DNA of 64,000 bases from an uncultured Eubacteriales bacterium (lineage in GTDB: Bacteria; Bacillota; Clostridia; Lachnospirales; JAISER01): positions 757 to 64,756 of the forward strand of contig CAZJGG010000003.1 in assembly GCA_964545475.1 (NCBI GenBank), written 5' to 3'. Under the pieces are notes generated by a model. The model ran no database searches. It was not told the origin of the DNA and saw nothing but the letters and a program-made list of their open reading frames with translations. Shown one piece after another: positions 9,445-57,653 of the stretch (positions are counted from its first letter, which is position 1; each line of letters starts with the position of its first letter). A program made the translations under genes and the position numbers.

Positions 9445-9492
9445 AATTACAACCTCCCATAAAATATTAAAAAATACTAATTCTGAAGGTGA

Positions 9493-9533
9493 CCTCTAAA
9501 AACCTGCTTTGTTTGGATTTTCGAGGTTGCCTG
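9493..9533. repeat. Short hairpin resembling the termini of the palindromic repeat family (possible remnant)
   Basis: CCTCTAAAAACC...GGATTTTCGAGGTTGCCT. Compare the ends of copy A: CTCTAAAAACC (32238) and TTTTTAGAGGTTGCCT (32391-32406). Confidence 0.35.
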
Positions 9534-20795: not shown

Positions 20796-20850
20796 TAAGA
20801 GCCTGTTCAAAGCCTCGCTTTTAATGGGTTTTCGAGCAAATTTTTTGAGG
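20796..20850. repeat. Degenerate, inverted copy of one arm of the palindromic repeat family
   Basis: CTAAGAGCCTGTTCAAAGCCTCGCTTTTAATGGGTTTTCGAGCAAATTTTTT aligns to the reverse complement of 54122-54178. Confidence 0.55.
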
Positions 20851-21047: not shown

Positions 21048-21152
21048 TAGAGCAATTTGACAAAACATTGACAGGTGTGGAGGGGAAACAGCAAACGTTT
21101 CACCGCTGTTTCCGCGAACATAGCTGTTTATGTTTTTGCAAATAGCTATATG
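21048..21152 (+). repeat. 105-bp direct repeat, left copy
   Basis: Aligns without gaps to 22350-22454 with 5 mismatches by my count. Contains the hairpin GGAAACAGC-N12-GCTGTTTCC (21084-21113). Confidence 0.9.
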
Positions 21153-22349: not shown

Positions 22350-22454
22350 TAGAGCAACTTGACAAAACATTAACAGGTGTGGAGTGGAAACAGCAGACGT
22401 TTCACCGCTGTTTCTGCGAACATAGCTGTTTATGTTTTTGCAAATAGCTATATG
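22350..22454 (+). repeat. 105-bp direct repeat, right copy
   Basis: See the left copy at 21048-21152. Confidence 0.9.
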
Positions 22455-25045: not shown

Positions 25046-26050
25046 GTGAGTAATATACTTGAAGTTAAAAACTTAAAAACAACATTTTTTACTGAAGATG
25101 GAAAAGTACAAGCCGTTCGTGGCATTGATTTTAATATAAAAAAAGGCGAATCTGTGGGAATCGTTGGGGAATCCGGCTGCGGCAAAAGCGTTACAATGCT
25201 TTCGATTATGCGTTTATTGTCAAGCAACGCAAATTTTTCTGCCGATTACATAAACTTTGAAGGTGAAAACCTTATTAATAAGACCCGGGCGGATATGCGT
25301 GGCATACAAGGGAATCAGATAGGCATGATTTTTCAAGACCCTATGACGTCCTTAAACCCGGTTTTTACAATTGGAGATCAAATTTGCGAGCCTTTGAAGA
25401 TACATCAAAAATTAAAAGGTGCGGAAGCAAAGAAAAAAGCAGTGGAGCTTTTAAAGCTTGTTGGTATTCCCAGCCCAGAAAGCCGTTTAAAGCAATATCC
25501 TCATGAATTTTCCGGAGGTATGCGCCAAAGGGTTATGATTGCTATTGCCTTAAGTTGTAATCCAAGGCTTTTAATTGCAGACGAACCCACAACTGCACTA
25601 GACGTTACAATTCAAGCCCAAATTTTAGATCTTATGAACGAGCTTAAAGCAAAGCTTGATATGTCTATAATTATGATTACCCATGACTTAGGTGTTATCG
25701 CAAGCACATGCTCAAAGGTTATTGTAATGTATGGCGGTCTTATTATAGAAGAAGCCAGCGCAGACGAATTGTTTGAAAACGCTAAACACCCTTATACTTG
25801 GGGTCTTATAAATTCCTTGCCAAGAGTAACCGAGGGGGGCAAAAAAGAAAAGCTGTTCCCAATACCGGGAAGCCCGCCGGACTTACTTGCGCCACCCAAA
25901 GGCTGCCCTTTTGCGCCAAGATGCCAAAAGGCAATGATGATTTGTCAAGATTATATGCCTAATTTCTGTGATGTATCCGAGACTCATAAAGTCGCTTGTT
26001 GGCTTATGCATCCAAAGGCGAAAAATTTGGACGGAGGAAGATTGGCATGA
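25046..26050 (+). CDS. oppD: Oligopeptide ABC transporter ATPase (OppD type)
   Basis: GTG start. Walker A GESGCGKS, signature FSGGMRQR, Walker [13 protein letters not shown], and a C-terminal oligopeptide-type extension. Confidence 0.9.
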
Positions 26051-27015
26051 GCGAACAAATGATAGTTAAAAACCTAAAAAAACATTTCCCCATAAGAAAG
26101 GGCTTTTTTGGAGGGGAAAGCAAAGTTGCAAAAGCTGTTGATGATGTTAGCTTTACTATAAATAAAGGTGAAACATTAGGGCTTGTTGGTGAATCCGGCT
26201 GCGGTAAAACCACTGTAGGAAGGTGCATTTTAAAGCTGTATTCTTTAACCTCCGGAGAAATTTGGTTTAATGGCGTAGATATTTCAAAGTTTGACAGAAA
26301 TGAAATGCTGCCTTATCGCAAAAAAATACAGATGATATTCCAAGACCCATTTACCTCTTTGGATCCTCGTATGACCATAGGGCAAATTATCGGAGCACCT
26401 CTTGCTGTACACGGGCTTTACGAGGGGAGCGCAAGGCAGGATAGAATTAAGGAGCTTATTTCAGATGTAGGGCTTAAAAGCGACCATATTAACCGTTATC
26501 CCCATGAATTTTCCGGCGGACAGCGGCAAAGGATTGGCATTGCAAGGGCTTTGGCGGTTGAGCCTGAGTTTATTGTTTGCGATGAGCCGGTTTCCGCATT
26601 GGACGTTTCGATTCAAGCACAAATTATTAATTCTCTTGTGGAGTTCCAAAAGGAACTGGGGCTTACATATTTGTTTATTTCTCATGACCTTTCAGTTGTG
26701 CGATATATTTCTGATAAAGTAGGGGTTATGTATCTGGGTAACATGGTTGAATATGCTGAAGTTGGGGAGATGTATTCAAATATGCAGCATCCTTATTCAA
26801 AATCATTGTTTTCCGCTTTGCCGGAAGCAAACCCGAAAAAAGCAAGGGAAGCAAAACGCATAATTTTACAAGGAGATTTACCTTCGCCAATTAACCCGCC
26901 ATCGGGTTGCGCATTTAGGACGAGATGCAGCGAATGTATGCCTATTTGCAGCGAGCAAAAACCTGCTTTTAAAGACATTGGCGGCAATCACTTTGTTGCT
27001 TGTCATAAGTTCTAG
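26047..27015 (+). CDS. oppF: Oligopeptide ABC transporter ATPase (OppF type)
   Basis: I placed the start at ATG 26047, which overlaps the oppD stop as ATGA and has GGAGGA upstream. Contains GESGCGKTT, FSGGQRQR and IVCDEPVSALD. Confidence 0.9.
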   Translation: MSEQMIVKNLKKHFPIRKGFFGGESKVAKAVDDVSFTINKGETLGLVGESGCGKTTVGRCILKLYSLTSGEIWFNGVDISKFDRNEMLPYRKKIQMIFQDPFTSLDPRMTIGQIIGAPLAVHGLYEGSARQDRIKELISDVGLKSDHINRYPHEFSGGQRQRIGIARALAVEPEFIVCDEPVSALDVSIQAQIINSLVEFQKELGLTYLFISHDLSVVRYISDKVGVMYLGNMVEYAEVGEMYSNMQHPYSKSLFSALPEANPKKAREAKRIILQGDLPSPINPPSGCAFRTRCSECMPICSEQKPAFKDIGGNHFVACHKF

Positions 27016-31052: not shown

Positions 31053-32243
31053 ATGAAATTAAATGAAATAAACAGGCAGGCTGATTTAATGTTTCCGCTG
31101 TTAACAGAGCTGAGAAGGCATTTACATATAAATCCAGAGCTTGGACAGCAGGAATTTATGACCCAAAAATTTATAATGGAGTTTCTTCAAAATGAGGGAA
31201 TCCCTTGTGAAAAAATTGCCGATACCGGAGTTATTGCTTGGGTTAAAGGAAACGCACCCGGCAGAGTTGTTGCCGCAAGAGCGGACATTGATGCCTTGCC
31301 GATTTTAGAGGATGACGGAGCAGCGTATTGCTCTGTAAACAAGGGAGTTATGCACGCTTGCGGTCATGATGCCCATACAGCCATAAATATGGGTTTGGCT
31401 AAATTTTTTAATGATAATAAAGAATCATTTCATGGTACGGTAAAATTCTTTTATCAGCCTGCAGAGGAAACTGTTGGCGGCGCAAGGCGCATGATTGAGG
31501 CAGGTTGCATGGAAAACCCGAAAGTTGATTATGTAATAGGGTTGCATGTTATGCCTTATATATATTATAATCAAGTGGAAGTAAAACACGGTCCTCTTAA
31601 CGCTTCAACAAACACAGTAAGACTTACTGTAAGAGGAAAAAGCGGACATGGGGCATACCCTGACATATGCGTTGATGCCATTATGATTGCGGCGCAAATT
31701 ATTGTGTCTTTACAATCAGTAGTAAGCAGAAATATTTCCCCCCTTGATTGCGCTGTTTTAACATTTGGCAAAATTAACGGAGGAAAAGCCGGCAACGTTA
31801 TTGCCGATGAGGTGGAGCTAGTTGGAACTTTGCGTTCTTCCGGGCCCCATGTGGAAAAAATTATGCTGGAAAAAGTAAGGACAATAGCAACGGGCATTGC
31901 TGCGGCTATGGGTGGCGAATGTATTATGAAGCTTGGGGGAGACGGTTATTTACCCCTTGTTAACGACGATGAGATTATTGATTTAATAACGGAAAACGCC
32001 GTGGAGTATTTAGGCGCAGAAAACGTTAATTTTAAGCCTGTTATGAGCATGGGTGGGGAAGATTTTTCTTTCTTTAACGCTAATACAAGAGGTGCATTTT
32101 ATAGCTTGGGTTGCCGTGTTCAGGGCAGAGAACCTTATGGGTTACATACAAAGCAATTTGATATTGATGAACGATGCTTGAAAACAGGGCTTGTTCTGCA
32201 AGCCATGAATATATATAAATTATTAGCATATGGCAAACTCTAA
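31053..32243 (+). CDS. M20D-family amidohydrolase (N-acyl amino acid / peptide amidohydrolase)
   Basis: 396 aa. Contains ARADIDALPI, HACGHDAH and FYQPAEE motifs of the M20D/ILR1-type family. Confidence 0.8.
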   Translation: MKLNEINRQADLMFPLLTELRRHLHINPELGQQEFMTQKFIMEFLQNEGIPCEKIADTGVIAWVKGNAPGRVVAARADIDALPILEDDGAAYCSVNKGVMHACGHDAHTAINMGLAKFFNDNKESFHGTVKFFYQPAEETVGGARRMIEAGCMENPKVDYVIGLHVMPYIYYNQVEVKHGPLNASTNTVRLTVRGKSGHGAYPDICVDAIMIAAQIIVSLQSVVSRNISPLDCAVLTFGKINGGKAGNVIADEVELVGTLRSSGPHVEKIMLEKVRTIATGIAAAMGGECIMKLGGDGYLPLVNDDEIIDLITENAVEYLGAENVNFKPVMSMGGEDFSFFNANTRGAFYSLGCRVQGREPYGLHTKQFDIDERCLKTGLVLQAMNIYKLLAYGKL

Positions 32244-32399
32244 AAACCCCATTTCGCCATTTTTTTGGCAAATTTTCCGTTTTGCTGTGTCAGCGAGAAA
32301 CGCCCATACAATTGATAGTATGAACGTTCCTCGCTTCCTTTCAAAACGAAAAATTTGCTCAAAAATCTGACGAAAGCGAGTTTTTAGAGGTTGCCTATA
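32238..32399. repeat. Palindromic (MITE/REP-like) intergenic repeat, copy A
   Basis: About 162 bp of imperfect palindrome centred near 32318. It is homologous to 54001-54182. It begins at the M20D stop codon and ends at the SD of the next gene. Confidence 0.85.
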
Positions 32400-32412
32400 A
32401 AGGAGATTAAAC

Positions 32413-33210
32413 ATGAAGATTTTTTTAAGCTGTGATATTGAGGGCACTAACGGAATTGCACATTGGGATGAAACTGAAAACGACAAAGCGCCTTACAAAT
32501 ATTGGGCGGACGTAATGACAAAAGAAGTTAACGCCGTTTGCAATGGTATTAACAATGCTTCTAGTGATTGCCAAATTTTTGTTAAAGACGCTCATGGCAG
32601 CGGTAGAAATCTTGACCATCAAATGCTTCCATTAAACGTTACTTTAAACAGAAGCTGGGCAAGACACCCATATTCTATGATGTACGGTATTGATTCTTCC
32701 TTTGATGCAACAATATTTTCCGGCTATCACAGCGGTGCAGCGAACAACGGTAATCCTCTTGCCCACACAATGAACGGGCAAATTATATATTTAAAAATTA
32801 ACGGCATGTATATTAGCGAATGTATAATGAACTATTATTCTTCGCTTTATAATGGCGTTCCTCTTGTTATGGTAGCCGGGGACGAAGCTCTTTGCGAATC
32901 AATTAAAAAAATTGAGCCTAACATTTACACTGTAACCAGCTTTGTGGGATGCGGCGGAAGCGTTACTTCTGAACACCCGGAAGTAACAAGAAAAAAAATA
33001 ATGGAGACAGCAGAAATTGCTGTTAAAAACCGTTCAAAAATGAGCGCTAAACTTCCAGAGGAGTTTAAAGCAGAAGTTTACTTTAAAACACATATGCAAG
33101 CTTCAAGAGCTACGTTTTACCCAGGGGCTTATAAAGTTACCGACCATAGCGTTGGCTTTGACACAAAAGATTACTTTGAATTCTTGAAATTTTTTATGTT
33201 TGTAAGCTAA
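32413..33210 (+). CDS. M55-family D-aminopeptidase (B. subtilis DppA family)
   Basis: 265 aa. Contains MKIFLSCDIEGTNGI, VKDAHGSG, GYH and VPLVMVAGD, which align to the B. subtilis DppA pattern. Confidence 0.8.
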   Translation: MKIFLSCDIEGTNGIAHWDETENDKAPYKYWADVMTKEVNAVCNGINNASSDCQIFVKDAHGSGRNLDHQMLPLNVTLNRSWARHPYSMMYGIDSSFDATIFSGYHSGAANNGNPLAHTMNGQIIYLKINGMYISECIMNYYSSLYNGVPLVMVAGDEALCESIKKIEPNIYTVTSFVGCGGSVTSEHPEVTRKKIMETAEIAVKNRSKMSAKLPEEFKAEVYFKTHMQASRATFYPGAYKVTDHSVGFDTKDYFEFLKFFMFVS

Positions 33211-50709: not shown

Positions 50710-50926
50710 GAAGTAACACTCCTCTGTAGGATGGTGGTTTTTTAAAATTTTTGTTATAGACAAAGTATGAAATACCAAATAATAATGATATTATGACCAC
50801 AAGCTTAATAAAAAAAACAAGTCTTTTTTTTCCAATCAATTAAGATAACCTCCTAAAACATTAATACGGTTATTGACAATTATATCCACTTGATAGTACT
50901 ATATATTCAATGTTCAAAATTTGTTG

Positions 50927-51029
50927 TATAGCAATTTTCTAATTAGCAGTCCAATGAATCACGGCGCATTAGCGCAAACGCTGTAGGCGTTTAGTGATTA
51001 ATTGGACTACATTAAATAAAATTGCTATA
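50927..51029. other. Nested-stem (Y-shaped) palindromic element in the spoVAA/dpaA intergenic region
   Basis: Outer stem TATAGCAATTTT / AAAATTGCTATA. Inner stem GTCCAATGAATCAC / GTGATTAATTGGAC with 1 mismatch. These enclose two mini-hairpins, GCGC-ATTA-GCGC and AAACGC-TGTAG-GCGTTT. Confidence 0.6.
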
Positions 51030-51150
51030 TACATAATTTAATTGAAGGATTGTTTTAAAATAGAACACGCCCTTAATTGAATAAGCATAAGATATTAATA
51101 ATTACTCTAAGCATTTTTCAAAGCTATACAAGCAATGAAAAGGCTTCTGA

Positions 51151-52667: not shown

Positions 52668-53663
52668 ATGTCAGCAACATTATTGGAAGAATACAGAAAC
52701 GGCATACTTGAAACAATTCATAAAGGCATTGTATGCATTATTGATAAAGATAGGAGCATAAAGCATATAGGAGATCACAATACGCTTATGTTTTACCGCT
52801 CATGCAGCAAGCCTATTCAAATTTTACCTTTTATATTAAATGGGTTGCACGAGAAATATGATATTAAACCAGAGGAAATAGCAATAATGTGTTCTTCCCA
52901 CCATGGAAACCCGGAGCATGTTGAAGTTTTGGAAAGCCTTGCAAAAAGGCTTGGTTTAAACGAAGATATGTTCGTTATGAAACCAACTTACCCAATAAAC
53001 TTAAACAGCAAAACTGCGGTTATAAAAAATGGCTTGCCCCCGAGAAAAGTTTACCACAACTGCTTTGGCAAGCATATAGGGCTTATTCTTCTTGCCCGAC
53101 ATTACGGCATAAAAGAAGAAAACTACTGGCATGGGGACAATAAAATTGTTTATGCAATAAAAGAGCTTATATCTTATTTGGCGGAAGTTAACGCTGACGA
53201 TATAAAAACCGGAACAGACGGTTGCGGTGTGCCTGTTTTTGCAGTTCCAATGGAAAAAATTGCTCTATCTTATTTAAAATATGCACGCCCTGAGCTTATT
53301 AATGACGAAAGCGTTAGAAAAGCAACTCAAATAGTGTGGGATTCCATTCATGAAAAACCGTCAATGATATGCGGTGAAGGGGAAGCTGTATCAGAGCTTT
53401 CTGCAAGCCCAAATATATTAGCTAAAGATGGGGCAGGGGGGCTTATAACAATGGGGCTTCGCAAAGAGGGGCTTGGCATTGTTATCCGCCTTCAAGACGG
53501 AGCGCACCACAGGCTTCCTCAAATTGCCTATTCTGTTCTTGAAAAAATTAGCTATGAAGATAAGGAACTTATAAACAGGCTTAAAAACTTATCTCCTATG
53601 GCTGTATATAATGAAAACGACGATATAGTGGGGGATATTAAAGCTCCATTTACATTAAAGTAA
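52668..53663 (+). CDS. Asparaginase-II-like (PF06089-type) protein
   Basis: 331 aa. Contains YRSCSKPIQ, SSHHG and DGCGVP motifs typical of the Rhizobium-type asparaginase family. Confidence 0.65.
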   Translation: MSATLLEEYRNGILETIHKGIVCIIDKDRSIKHIGDHNTLMFYRSCSKPIQILPFILNGLHEKYDIKPEEIAIMCSSHHGNPEHVEVLESLAKRLGLNEDMFVMKPTYPINLNSKTAVIKNGLPPRKVYHNCFGKHIGLILLARHYGIKEENYWHGDNKIVYAIKELISYLAEVNADDIKTGTDGCGVPVFAVPMEKIALSYLKYARPELINDESVRKATQIVWDSIHEKPSMICGEGEAVSELSASPNILAKDGAGGLITMGLRKEGLGIVIRLQDGAHHRLPQIAYSVLEKISYEDKELINRLKNLSPMAVYNENDDIVGDIKAPFTLK

Positions 53664-53671
53664 AATAAAAA

Positions 53672-53719
53672 GCGGCAAACACATGTATACAGCAGGGCTG
53701 TATTGTGTTTGCCGCTTTT
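53672..53719 (+). terminator. Intrinsic terminator
   Basis: GCGGCAAACACA, structured loop, TGTGTTTGCCGC, followed by TTTT. Confidence 0.8.
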
Positions 53720-54000: not shown

Positions 54001-54182
54001 CCTTCCTTAGAGCCTGTTTAGAATCTCCATTTCAGTGTCTTTTCGGCAAATTTTCCGAATCGCTGCGTCAGTGGCAAACGCCCATACTTCTTCTAGTATG
54101 AACGTTCACCACTTCCTTGCGATTCAAAAAATTTGCTCAAAAATCCACTAAAAGCGAGATTCCAAACAGGCTCTTAGAAAGG
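54001..54182. repeat. Palindromic (MITE/REP-like) intergenic repeat, copy B
   Basis: About 182 bp of imperfect palindrome. The outer arms are CCTTCCTTAGAGCCTGTTTAGAATCTC and GAGATTCCAAACAGGCTCTTAGAAAGG. The core is homologous to 32238-32399. Confidence 0.85.
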
Positions 54183-54272: not shown

Positions 54273-55661
54273 TTACTTAATAGATGCAAATGACTTGCAA
54301 AGCTCATACAACGTAGTTATTCCTGCTCCTGTTGCCCCTATGTTTTGGAATTCCCATTTTTGAGTGCTTACCCAAGCTGTACCAGCAATATCAATATGCA
54401 TCCAAGGCAGGTCTTCATTAAAACATGAAAGAAATTGCCCAGCCGCTATTGTGGCGCAGCCCTCTTCAGAGCTGTTTTTTATGTCAGCGGCACGGCTTTC
54501 ATTTAGTTTGGCATATTCATCAAAAGTAGGAAGGCGCCAGTATTGCTCTCCGGTGTCTTTAGAAGCATTGTTAAGTCTGTTGAAAAATTCATCGTCATTA
54601 GAAAGCACAGCGGCAGTTGTAAACCCAAACATTAACACAACTCCCCCTGTTAATGTGGCAATATCCACAATTCTAGTTGCTCCGGCTTTTGATACTGCAT
54701 AAGTTATGGCATCTGCCAAGACAAGCCGCCCTTCGGCATCAGTATTGGCGATTTCAATGGTTTTTCCGCTCATGGAAGTAACAACGTCTCCAACCAAGAA
54801 GCTATCTCTTGATATGCGGTTTTCCGCCGCCGGAATAACAGCAGTAACATTAACGTGAACTTTATTTTTAGCAAGAGCAGTTATACAGCCCCAAACAGCC
54901 GCCGCCCCTGCCATATCTCCTCTTATGCCTTTCATAGAAAGAACAGGCTTTAAGCAATATCCTCCTGTGTCGCAGGTTATGCCCTTGCCTACAAGCCCTA
55001 TAACTTCTTTGCTCTCCGGCGCACCTTTATAGGTTAAAACCGCCATACGAGGAAGGTTTCCTGCGCTTCCGCCAACAGCCAGCAAAGCATTCATACCCAG
55101 CTCTTTCATTTGTTTATCATCTAATATTTCAACAGTGCATCCGGCTTTTTCAGCCAAATCAGCCATTCTTGCCGTCATTGTATCAGGAGTAAGCATGTTT
55201 GCCGGTTCGTTTACCATATCCCGAGCTATTAAAACGCTTTCTGCTATAGCAGATATTTCAGACAGCTTATTAAAGTCTTTTTCCCCATTTGGTAAATCGA
55301 GGTAAACAGTAAGTTCGTTTATTGTGTTAGTGCTTTTCCAGTTTTTCGGTTTGTAAAGGGTAAGTGCAACGCTTTCGTATGCAAAAACGGCGGCTTTTTC
55401 ACCAAAAAGTTCAGCTAAAGCTTTAAGGCGAATAACAACGGATTTCCCTCCGTTTAACTGAACATGTTTTATACCTGCCGCAACAGCACGCCTTACTAAC
55501 AGTGAGGAAAGTTTTTCCTTATCCCCCAAACATACCGTAGCGCAAGGCATTTGTCCGTCATTAAAAGAGCAGTTAATATTAAGCAAATTATTATTTTCAT
55601 TGTTTTTTAAGGCAAAATCAATTTGCCATTGTGCAGCTTCGTTGTTCCAGTAAGTAATCAT
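54273..55661 (-). CDS. pepA: Leucyl aminopeptidase (M17)
   Basis: 462 aa. Contains VGKGITCDTGGY and NTDAEGRLVLAD, the M17 signature. Confidence 0.92.
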   Translation of the reverse strand: MITYWNNEAAQWQIDFALKNNENNNLLNINCSFNDGQMPCATVCLGDKEKLSSLLVRRAVAAGIKHVQLNGGKSVVIRLKALAELFGEKAAVFAYESVALTLYKPKNWKSTNTINELTVYLDLPNGEKDFNKLSEISAIAESVLIARDMVNEPANMLTPDTMTARMADLAEKAGCTVEILDDKQMKELGMNALLAVGGSAGNLPRMAVLTYKGAPESKEVIGLVGKGITCDTGGYCLKPVLSMKGIRGDMAGAAAVWGCITALAKNKVHVNVTAVIPAAENRISRDSFLVGDVVTSMSGKTIEIANTDAEGRLVLADAITYAVSKAGATRIVDIATLTGGVVLMFGFTTAAVLSNDDEFFNRLNNASKDTGEQYWRLPTFDEYAKLNESRAADIKNSSEEGCATIAAGQFLSCFNEDLPWMHIDIAGTAWVSTQKWEFQNIGATGAGITTLYELCKSFASIK

Positions 55662-56637: not shown

Positions 56638-57653
56638 TTAACCGCCTCCTTTGCGCCGTTTTCTGTATGCCAGCAGCGGCATTTTCTTGTTTGCCCATAT
56701 TCAAGAAGAACAGGTTCTTCCTTATGGCACTGCTCCGTTGTAAATGCGCATCTAGGTGCAAATTTACATCCAGTAGGCATTGCGGATAAATCCGGCACAC
56801 TGCCGGGAATAGAGGGTAGTGTAGTTACTCCAGAACCAAGCTTCGGAACGGAAGCAATAAGCCCTTTAGTATAAGGGTGCATAGGTTCTGCAAAAAGCTG
56901 GTTTACAGAAGCTTCTTCAACAATTCTCCCTGCATACATAACCATAACCCGGCTGCACATTTCCGCAACAATACCTAAGTCATGGGTAATTAATATTATT
57001 CCGGCGTTATATTCGTTTTTAATGTTGCGCATTAGGTCTAAAATTTGAGCTTGAATCGTAACGTCAAGGGCGGTAGTTGGTTCGTCTGCAATAAGCAATT
57101 TTGGGTTACAGCTCATAGCCATAGCAATCATAACCCTTTGGCTCATGCCCCCAGATAACTGGTGAGGGTAGCTTCGCATAGTTACGCTTGGTACAGGTAT
57201 TCCAACTTGTCTAAGCATATGTTCAGCGTGTTCTGTCGCCTGTTTTTTGATGTAATCCATATGCAGACGAATAGCTTCAACCATTTGCGCTCCAATGCGC
57301 ATAGAAGGATTTAACGAAGTCATAGCTTCCTGAAAAATCATTGAAATGCTTTTGCCCCTGACAGAACGCATTTCTCGCTCACTGCATGTAAGTAGGTCTT
57401 TTCCCTCAAATATAATTTCTCCTCCGGCAATACTGCCTGATGTACTTTTAAAAAGCTGCATAATAGATAATGACGTTACGGATTTTCCACAGCCGGACTC
57501 ACCAACGAGCCCTACAATTTCCCCGGGGTAAACCTGAAAGCTGACATCGTCAATAACCACAACTTTAGACTTTTTCCCTGTTTTAAATTCTGTACGCAGA
57601 TTTTTTATATCAAGCAAAGGCTGGTCTTTTTTTACTAAAGAATTTTCGTTCAT
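56634..57653 (-). CDS. Peptide ABC transporter ATPase (OppD/DppD type)
   Basis: Contains [17 protein letters not shown] and [11 protein letters not shown]. It overlaps the next gene by 4 nt. Confidence 0.88.

Follow-up and report, generated by a model that had tools for sequence, protein, structure and literature searches.

The 64-kb window analysed here, that is the whole 64,000-nucleotide stretch of contig CAZJGG010000003.1 (uncultured Eubacteriales bacterium), contains two long palindromic repeats, copies A and B, and two remnants related to them, C and D (Table 1), making four copies or remnants within 64 kb. A and B are probably copies of a non-coding MITE (miniature inverted-repeat transposable element) of 160-164 bp, which would be mobilised by a transposase supplied in trans and whose single-strand fold would be under selection in the copies that propagate. 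Compensatory changes preserve the base pairing of the element's hairpin on one particular strand, which for both A and B is the minus strand of the window.

The initial annotation of the window had described A and B as related palindromes located at 32238-32399 and 54001-54182. Elements are indeed present at both places, their limits now being refined to those of Table 1, and their kinship is apparent from the 76% identity shared without gaps over 143 nt by 32241-32383 and 54019-54161. Each is a very stable palindrome over its whole length, with z-scores of -9 to -18 for the RNA folds and none of 200 shuffled sequences being equally stable. The GC content of the element is about 40%, its length falls within the 50-800 bp of MITEs and, as had been stated, it has no coding capacity, the open reading frames (ORFs) within it being only short, overlapping or spurious and without evident significance.

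Two degenerate pieces noticed earlier, an inverted arm at 20796-20850 and a mini-hairpin at 9493-9533, also belong to the family. The first, copy C, is the start of a B-type copy: the segment 20794-20848 shows 85% complementarity with an arm of B and matches the first ~50-57 nt of the minus strand of B, with similarity fading beyond this point, the sequence as far as ~20925 being decayed and the 3′ terminus gone. It lies between the stop codon and the terminator of a phosphoglucomutase gene, and its score with the covariance model R1 is not significant. In the second, copy D, the outer arm of A (matched by 9487-9525) directly abuts GTTGCC, the opposite terminus of A, and D is therefore an internal-deletion derivative; no target-site duplication is visible around it. 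Both are decay products of the element. A covariance model built from the family detects no copy in the window besides A, B and these remnants. A 398-amino-acid ORF beside C was considered as a possible transposase or TnpB, but is an alpha/beta hydrolase.

Ends, target-site duplications and the empty site of copy A

Canonical copies of the family are bounded by G-R-R-C-Y-Y-G-T ... A-C-R-R-G-Y-Y-C, and their terminal helix of 14 pairs is 91.5% paired over 27 sequences. Identical 3-nt flanks (TAA, TTA or TCA) are found in 24 of 33 distinct insertions, copy B being one of the 24 and the others coming from Ruminococcus callidus, Oscillibacter, Defluviitaleaceae MAGs and gut phage contigs, against 12.6 ± 2.3, and 22 at most, when the pairing of left and right flanks is shuffled (5000 shuffles). 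The triplets seen are TAA, TTA, TCA, CTA and TGA on the left and TAA, TTA, TCA, TGA and TAG on the right. Copy B stands in place as TTA / GAGCCTGTTT...AAACAGGCTC / TTA (54007-54176), and copy A, the plus-strand termini of which are GGCAAAC...GGTTGCC, is flanked by TAT on both sides.

An empty counterpart of the copy A site is provided by a contig of a metagenome-assembled genome (MAG), L118, where an orthologous operon of M20 and M55 peptidase genes (64% and 71% amino-acid identity, respectively) has the same gene order, is free of the element, and has the M20 stop codon 2 nt ahead of the M55 ATG. With 32232-32398 taken out, the window reads ...GCA TAT AAA GGA GAT TAA AC ATG, which aligns with the L118 junction ...AAC AAA GGA GAA GAA TAG GC ATG, the embedded Shine-Dalgarno (SD) sequence included. 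Since removal of the element together with one TAT recreates the stop-SD-ATG layout of L118, copy A is an insertion with a 3-bp duplication, one which exchanged the M20 residues KGD for GKL and brought a new stop codon. The empty site is that of a different species and not of a different strain, given that the nearest M55 homologue is just 71% identical. The suggestion of a non-autonomous mobile element, one of several functions first put forward, is thus upheld by the terminal inverted repeats, the 3-bp duplications, the empty site for A and the presence of many copies per genome.

PIF/Harbinger elements and Tourist MITEs generate TTA/TAA duplications, PIF/Harbinger terminal repeats are 14-25 bp in length with the motif G(N)5GTT, an example being GGGCCTGTTTGRAAC, and the PIF/Harbinger transposase is related to bacterial IS5 (PMC2213677; PMC4482050). 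The terminus of copy B, GAGCCTGTTTGGAATC, closely fits this motif and resembles the published example, and the motif is also present in C and in many relatives (GAGCCTGTT, GGGCCTGTT, GAACTTGTT). The MITE would most likely be moved by an IS5 or PIF-Harbinger-type transposase acting in trans and making a 3-nt staggered cut at a T-N-A-like target, which would become duplicated on insertion.

Covariation and strand polarity of the hairpin

The initial annotation left it to a wider search to establish whether further copies exist; with a covariance model, ~50 full copies were found on related loci (given here with the prefix L), together with a dozen diverged relatives possessing other termini. An alignment of 27 non-redundant members, each on its better-folding strand, gives a consensus structure of 60 pairs, 41 of which have double changes (0/500 shuffles as high), and so the covariation first seen between the arms of A and B extends across the family. 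Canonical pairing amounts to 94.2% of cells compared to 79.2% in shuffles (0/500 as high), and falls to only 33-47% when the partners are slid by 1-3 columns.

With the orientation of copies set by homology and not by fold, the same strand folds better in all 48 full copies, with a mean advantage of 17 kcal/mol, and in all 12 diverged relatives (by 7-34 kcal/mol), despite the little stem sequence these have in common. In the window, the RNA fold of copy A is predicted at -94.2 kcal/mol for the minus strand and -67.5 for the plus strand, the corresponding values for copy B being -118.1 and -79.2 kcal/mol. Model R1 likewise scores copy A at 121.8 bits on the minus strand and 50.3 on the plus strand (A being part of its training set) and copy B at 135.9 and 55.5 bits. 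DNA energy parameters yield the same polarity (for copy B, -52.9 kcal/mol minus and -42.5 plus), and hence RNA and single-stranded DNA are not separable by folding.

The polarity has its basis in wobble pairs. G·U is seen 154 times at paired positions and A·C 27 times, in 40 and 18 pair columns respectively, and the excess is greatest in the inner helices (127:14) and smaller in the terminal helix (27:13), with the other complementary mismatch classes being about even (21 A·G, 19 C·U). Changes at pairs follow the series C-G / U-G / U-A. On the conserved strand G·U (or G·T) wobbles are tolerated and A·C is not.

Certain unpaired or irregular parts of the hairpin are conserved as well. A box, GGATTTTCGAGCAAATTTT, pairs with AAAATTTGCCGAAAAGA leaving a bulged A and flanking G-A/A-G (tandem G·A), and a conserved internal loop has AAGG facing ACGCAG, an arrangement which occurs twice, as mirror images, in the Ruminococcus type. 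In copy A, the motif of the ACGCAG type faces AAGG at plus-strand positions 32334-32342 (CTTCCTTTC). Tandem U·G/G·U pairs are conserved across lineages whose stems have diverged.

The diverged relatives include L028:3057-3223, L040:2241-2407, L052:480-631, L052:632-798 and L058:2415-2582 as well as L032:667-846, L018:6035-6193, L006:3040-3200 and L012:5496-5664. Their termini and stems are very different, those of L032 (GGGCATCTCTAAAAAC) resembling copy A of the window. What they keep is a core of CGCAG, a short stem-loop and CAAGG, along with the same strand polarity, which suggests that the superfamily may be defined by its internal core and not by its ends.

As to where selection acts, 43 copies could be classified by their neighbouring genes. 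The better-folding strand is antisense to co-directional genes in 13 cases and sense in 8, with 14 copies lying between convergent genes and 8 between divergent genes; of the copies in the window, B and C lie in sense orientation, while that of A is antisense with respect to its operon. Recent mutations were counted as deviations from the genome consensus at Watson-Crick pairs in two genomes with many recent copies. These comprise 13 G·U and 10 A·C events, a ratio compatible with 50% and different from the 85% G·U share between lineages (p = 0.001). With orientation unbiased and recent mutations symmetric, the single-strand fold is seemingly selected in propagating copies: from these small numbers we infer that individual insertions decay neutrally and that polarity is kept up in those copies from which new ones arise. 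This speaks against every copy having a host function and in favour of the single-stranded fold playing a part in how the element itself propagates.

Readings of the strand-specific fold

Under the proposed mechanism, the element would need the fold, whether as RNA or as single-stranded DNA, for its own spread. A broader claim, advanced only tentatively, is that propagating copies throughout the MITE superfamily are selected for a strand-specific single-stranded fold with conserved loops, across subfamilies with fully diverged termini and stems. If so, the element would be mobilised or maintained with the participation of its own RNA or single-stranded DNA, which might be a hairpin intermediate of transposition, an RNA that guides the transposase or is its cofactor, or a structured RNA carried by the transposon. 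To our knowledge, a single-stranded or RNA role has not been described for IS5/PIF-type elements, and the hairpin, if its strand specificity is real, would offer a testable handle on whether some bacterial MITEs pass through a single-stranded or RNA stage.

It is unlikely, though worth weighing, that the element is primarily a mobile structured non-coding RNA of ~160 nt, spread by transposition and acting as RNA in the manner of a protein sponge, RNase III substrate or regulator. The one-strand tolerance of G·U and the compensatory changes would suit such an RNA, as would the conservation of tandem U·G/G·U and unpaired AAGG / ACGCAG where the stems have diverged almost completely; AAGG(A) presumably resembles the single-stranded GGA motifs bound by proteins. 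However, no conserved promoter or terminator is present in or beside the element, promoter hits being at chance level, so that a full-length hairpin RNA would be possible only via read-through, and even so the orientation to neighbouring genes is unbiased. Recent mutations also show no G·U bias, and Rfam offers no match. At gathering score Rfam 15 detects only two tRNAs in the window and has no match in six related loci, and a permissive search returned sub-threshold generic long-hairpin or unrelated models around A and nothing around B.

A function for the host, with the stem acting in host mRNA as a 3′ stabiliser, RNase III/E site, attenuator or terminator, is distinctly improbable. Copies are intergenic or in 3′ regions, nearly a third of those classified (14/43) being between convergent genes, and the stems predicted for A (in operon mRNA) and B (in the pepA 3′ region) are very stable; such effects are exerted by other MITEs (PMC10969869; PMC3049150), and roles of this kind have been reported for ERIC, Correia and BIME elements. 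Nevertheless, there is no preferred orientation despite the difference of ~17 kcal/mol between the two, copy A sits in the weaker one, decay within genomes is symmetric with truncated and deleted copies occurring, and the orthologous operon of L118 works without the element. The terminator put forward among the initial candidates is not borne out: on neither strand is the stem followed by a T-tract, and terminator scans are negative at the elements.

The polarity could alternatively be due to chance or be purely inherited, with the G·U excess of an ordinary MITE simply going back to an ancestral sequence. The copies do share descent, and five majority-G·U pair columns hold about half of the G·U cells, yet this explanation is given little credence: G·U occurs in 40 of the 60 pair columns compared to 18 for A·C (binomial p = 0.005), pairs shift through C-G / U-G / U-A and not through A·C, and relatives with almost no common stem sequence keep the polarity by 7-34 kcal/mol.

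Least probable is that a non-DDE enzyme uses the hairpin, in single-stranded DNA form, as a recombination or transposition site (REP/BIME-RAYT, IS200/IS605-type PATE, attC-like or Xer-type), for although strand-specific folding with G·T holds under DNA parameters, polarity is apparently linked to propagation and the conserved extrahelical or unpaired bases are presumably reminiscent of attC and IS608 ends, HUH/Y1 transposases and integron integrases do not yield a variable 3-nt target duplication, dispersed single copies of 160 nt in both orientations are unlike REP clusters or cassette arrays, GTTRRRY/RYYYAAC boxes are absent from A and B, and no gene for such an enzyme is present nearby.

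A MITE moved in trans whose fold is selected during propagation remains the preferred explanation, and a number of points weigh against it. Neither the window nor ~0.8 Mb of related loci yielded an autonomous element or a transposase associated with matching ends, and so the cognate transposase proposed for a search by the initial annotation did not materialise there. Paired family termini 250-4000 bp apart gave two candidates only, one spanning ordinary genes and the other being a 341-bp variant, and no repeats of at least 400 bp common to several loci were found; a half copy in Ruminococcus callidus ATCC 27760, considered as an autonomous partner, was set aside as it adjoins an alcohol dehydrogenase and an XRE-like gene. 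The putative transposase family is deduced from the duplication and the terminal repeat only. The G(N)5GTT motif is absent from A and D (GGCAACCTC) and from types ending in GAACCTGTC or GAGCTTGTG, the TAT/TAT flanks of copy A deviate from TNA, and copy A, having other termini and another duplication, may require another enzyme. Sequence conservation in the family is highest internally (boxes and loops) and not at the termini, which is atypical of a MITE defined by transposase-binding ends. The within-genome symmetry test comprises 23 events only, and, given the common ancestry of the family members, the polarity is in part inherited and not independently selected. Lastly, a DDE transposase of the IS5/PIF kind would be expected to work on double-stranded DNA, leaving a strand-specific fold unexplained; this co-varying fold with its conserved loops is the one feature for which an ordinary cut-and-paste MITE does not account.

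Distribution, neighbouring genes and comparison with known systems

Reference genomes, scanned for the conserved block AAAATTTGCTCRAAAAYC, gave at least 116 loci, chance matches in unrelated phyla included. Among the matches listed, many loci belong to Ruminococcus callidus and to MAGs of Ruminococcus, Oscillibacter, Ruminiclostridium, 'Clostridia' and Defluviitaleaceae, and several Clostridia have dozens of loci per MAG or genome. The copies nearest to B among these matches are from Defluviitaleaceae (L011, L086 and L097), with 70-75% identity over the full length. Many family matches sit exactly at contig ends. The family is of practical interest as well, since gut and digester Clostridia (Ruminococcus, Oscillibacter, Subdoligranulum and Defluviitaleaceae relatives) carry it in abundance, as do phage contigs from the gut, and it breaks assemblies at contig ends; a model such as R1 could annotate these repeats and account for the breaks. 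No named MITE of Ruminococcus or Clostridia, and no named description of the family, came up in the literature searched, and the family appears to be undescribed so far but of a known kind.

Copies are also carried by ten human-gut 'bacteriophage' contigs and by one Subdoligranulum variabile plasmid. The phage records, among them MT835604.1, MT836087.1 and MT837732.1 (with seven more), are unannotated 'Bacteriophage sp.' entries from human faeces. A link to single-stranded DNA phages was considered and rejected, as the ~6-kb 'phage' contig examined has ORFs on both strands and so is not microvirus-like; at least this one of the short contigs may be bacterial or prophage DNA. The plasmid copy lies at 57428-57563 of OY725836.1, a 155-kb replicon whose record has one predicted resistance gene annotated and nothing at the family match.

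Table 1. Family members, their flanking duplications and conserved motifs, and adjacent genes in the 64-kb window.
Feature	Position	Strand	Remarks
Copy A	32232..32395	- (better-folding)	164-bp palindromic MITE; variant termini GGCAACCTCTAAAAAC...GTTTTTAGAGTTTGCC on minus strand
Copy A, left target-site duplication	32229..32231		TAT
Copy A, right target-site duplication	32396..32398		TAT
Copy A, conserved box	32350..32367	+	AAAATTTGCTCAAAAATC; read on minus strand as GATTTTTGAGCAAATTTT, pairs with AAAATTTGCCAAAAAAA, leaving a bulged A; family-wide
Copy A, unpaired 3′-arm motif	32284..32291	-	GACACAGC on minus strand; family consensus ACGCAG
Copy B	54010..54173	-	164-bp canonical copy; minus-strand termini GAGCCTGTTTGGAATC...GATTCTAAACAGGCTC; pepA 3′ region, sense orientation
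Copy B, left target-site duplication	54007..54009		TTA (TAA on minus strand)
Copy B, right target-site duplication	54174..54176		TTA
Copy B, conserved box	54128..54145	+	Same family-wide box as AAAATTTGCTCAAAAATC of copy A
Copy C	20799..20848	+	B-type remnant, opposite orientation, preceded by TAA; 5′ arm kept through GAGCAAATTTTTTG
Copy D	9488..9531	+	A-type, internally deleted; 39-40 nt of 5′ arm (GGTGACCTCTAAAAACC...GATTTTCGAG) joined directly to GTTGCC
M20 peptidase gene	31053..32243	+	C-terminus changed by insertion of copy A (KGD* to GKL*)
M55 D-aminopeptidase gene	32413..33210	+	SD at 32400-32405, starting two bases past the 3′ TAT of copy A
pepA (M17 leucyl aminopeptidase)	54273..55661	-	Copy B ~97 nt 3′ of its stop codon

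Copy A had been thought to fill exactly the gap between the M20 stop codon and the SD of the M55 gene. At the downstream side this holds closely, the element with its TAT reaching 32398, two bases short of the M55 AAGGAG; upstream, however, it covers the last four codons of the M20 gene, the stop codon included. The insertion would have turned a stop/start-coupled M20-M55 pair into genes 169 nt apart, with a predicted stem of -67 kcal/mol now ending just before the M55 SD. Because it is the antisense strand of the operon that folds better, the mRNA would carry the weaker stem (-67.5 and not -94.2 kcal/mol). Copy A presents a concrete case of a MITE remodelling an operon, in which the C-terminus of a peptidase is rewritten and a translationally coupled pair is split. 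There is also a promoter-like match on the minus strand at 32236-32208 (TTGCCA, 17 nt, TATATT; 10/12), with its -35 within the copy A terminus and its -10 in the flank, directed antisense into the M20 gene. Matches of this kind occur at chance frequency in the region, and this one is of the type of hybrid promoter that MITE insertion can create.

Copy B follows the pepA stop codon, as had been noted, and lies upstream of a small membrane-like minus-strand ORF. Its stem, predicted at -118 kcal/mol, would now be part of the pepA 3′ region. Effects of A and B on the expression of neighbouring genes are plausible by analogy with Correia and ERIC (PMC10969869). The window is rich in genes for peptide catabolism, with oligopeptide-type ABC ATPase paralogues alongside the M20, M55 and M17 peptidase genes; the ATPase paralogues are in tandem (25110-25700 and 26132-26552), with a further set on the opposite strand (56965-57341), at 73-77% DNA identity.

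Other palindromes are present in the window. A second palindromic repeat family consists of 21048-21152 and 22350-22454, each of 105 nt, 95% identical and in direct orientation, flanking the alpha/beta-hydrolase gene. Its hairpin of ~97 nt (ends TAGAGCAATTTGAC...CAAATAGCTATA) is predicted at -42 to -46 kcal/mol on the plus strand and -32 on the minus strand, the advantage of the better strand again being due to wobble pairs, and it has no Rfam match. Since the first of these copies extends over the GTG listed as the start of the hydrolase ORF, translation probably begins at the ATG near 21150 instead. An inverted repeat at 50917-50962 / 50994-51039 has 46-nt arms, 74% complementary and 31 nt apart, is unrelated in sequence to the MITE family and gives only a weak generic hairpin match to the covariance model. 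A perfect short palindrome at 53687-53703, just after an ORF ending at 53663, has a terminator-like score on each strand and may terminate transcription in both directions between convergent genes.

Among known systems, integron attC sites and the CTX-phage attP(+) are alike only in that one DNA strand folds into a long imperfect hairpin, of which structure and unpaired bases but not sequence are conserved. An attC identity is rejected, the element having no R/L boxes at its termini and no cassette array or integrase, being dispersed in both orientations among housekeeping genes and having duplications. REP/BIME-RAYT and IS200/IS605 palindrome elements likewise form strand-specific, G·T-tolerant hairpins and are multi-copy and intergenic. 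Those, however, are units of 20-40 nt or subterminal hairpins served by a Y1/HUH enzyme without target duplication, whereas the present unit is 160-164 nt in length, has about 40% GC and is flanked by 3-bp duplications; an association with either group, as raised in the initial annotation, is incompatible with this size and with true variable-TNA duplications.

Tourist-like MITEs of the PIF/Harbinger-IS5 group share with the family the 3-bp TTA/TAA (TNA) duplication, the short length, the lack of coding capacity and the high copy number, and copy B also shares the G(N)5GTT start. The present family differs in its bacterial (Clostridia) hosts and in that the whole element is one co-varying hairpin with wobbles on one strand, copy A differing further in its unrelated termini and TAT duplication. 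The Chunjie MITE of Geobacter is said to be inserted in an operon without disrupting it. Similarly, copy A lies between co-transcribed genes, regenerates the upstream stop codon and leaves the downstream SD intact, though it belongs to another family and host and abolishes the original stop/start overlap.

ERIC (IRU), Correia/NEMIS, RUP, BOX and SPRITE are likewise imperfect palindromes of 100-200 bp that fold when transcribed, are intergenic with enrichment at 3′ ends and between convergent genes, sometimes lie inside operons and give RNA hairpins of orientation-dependent stability. The present family has no sequence similarity to them and has a different duplication, that of Correia and ERIC being TA, and for it a one-strand wobble bias together with internal loops conserved across families is documented here.

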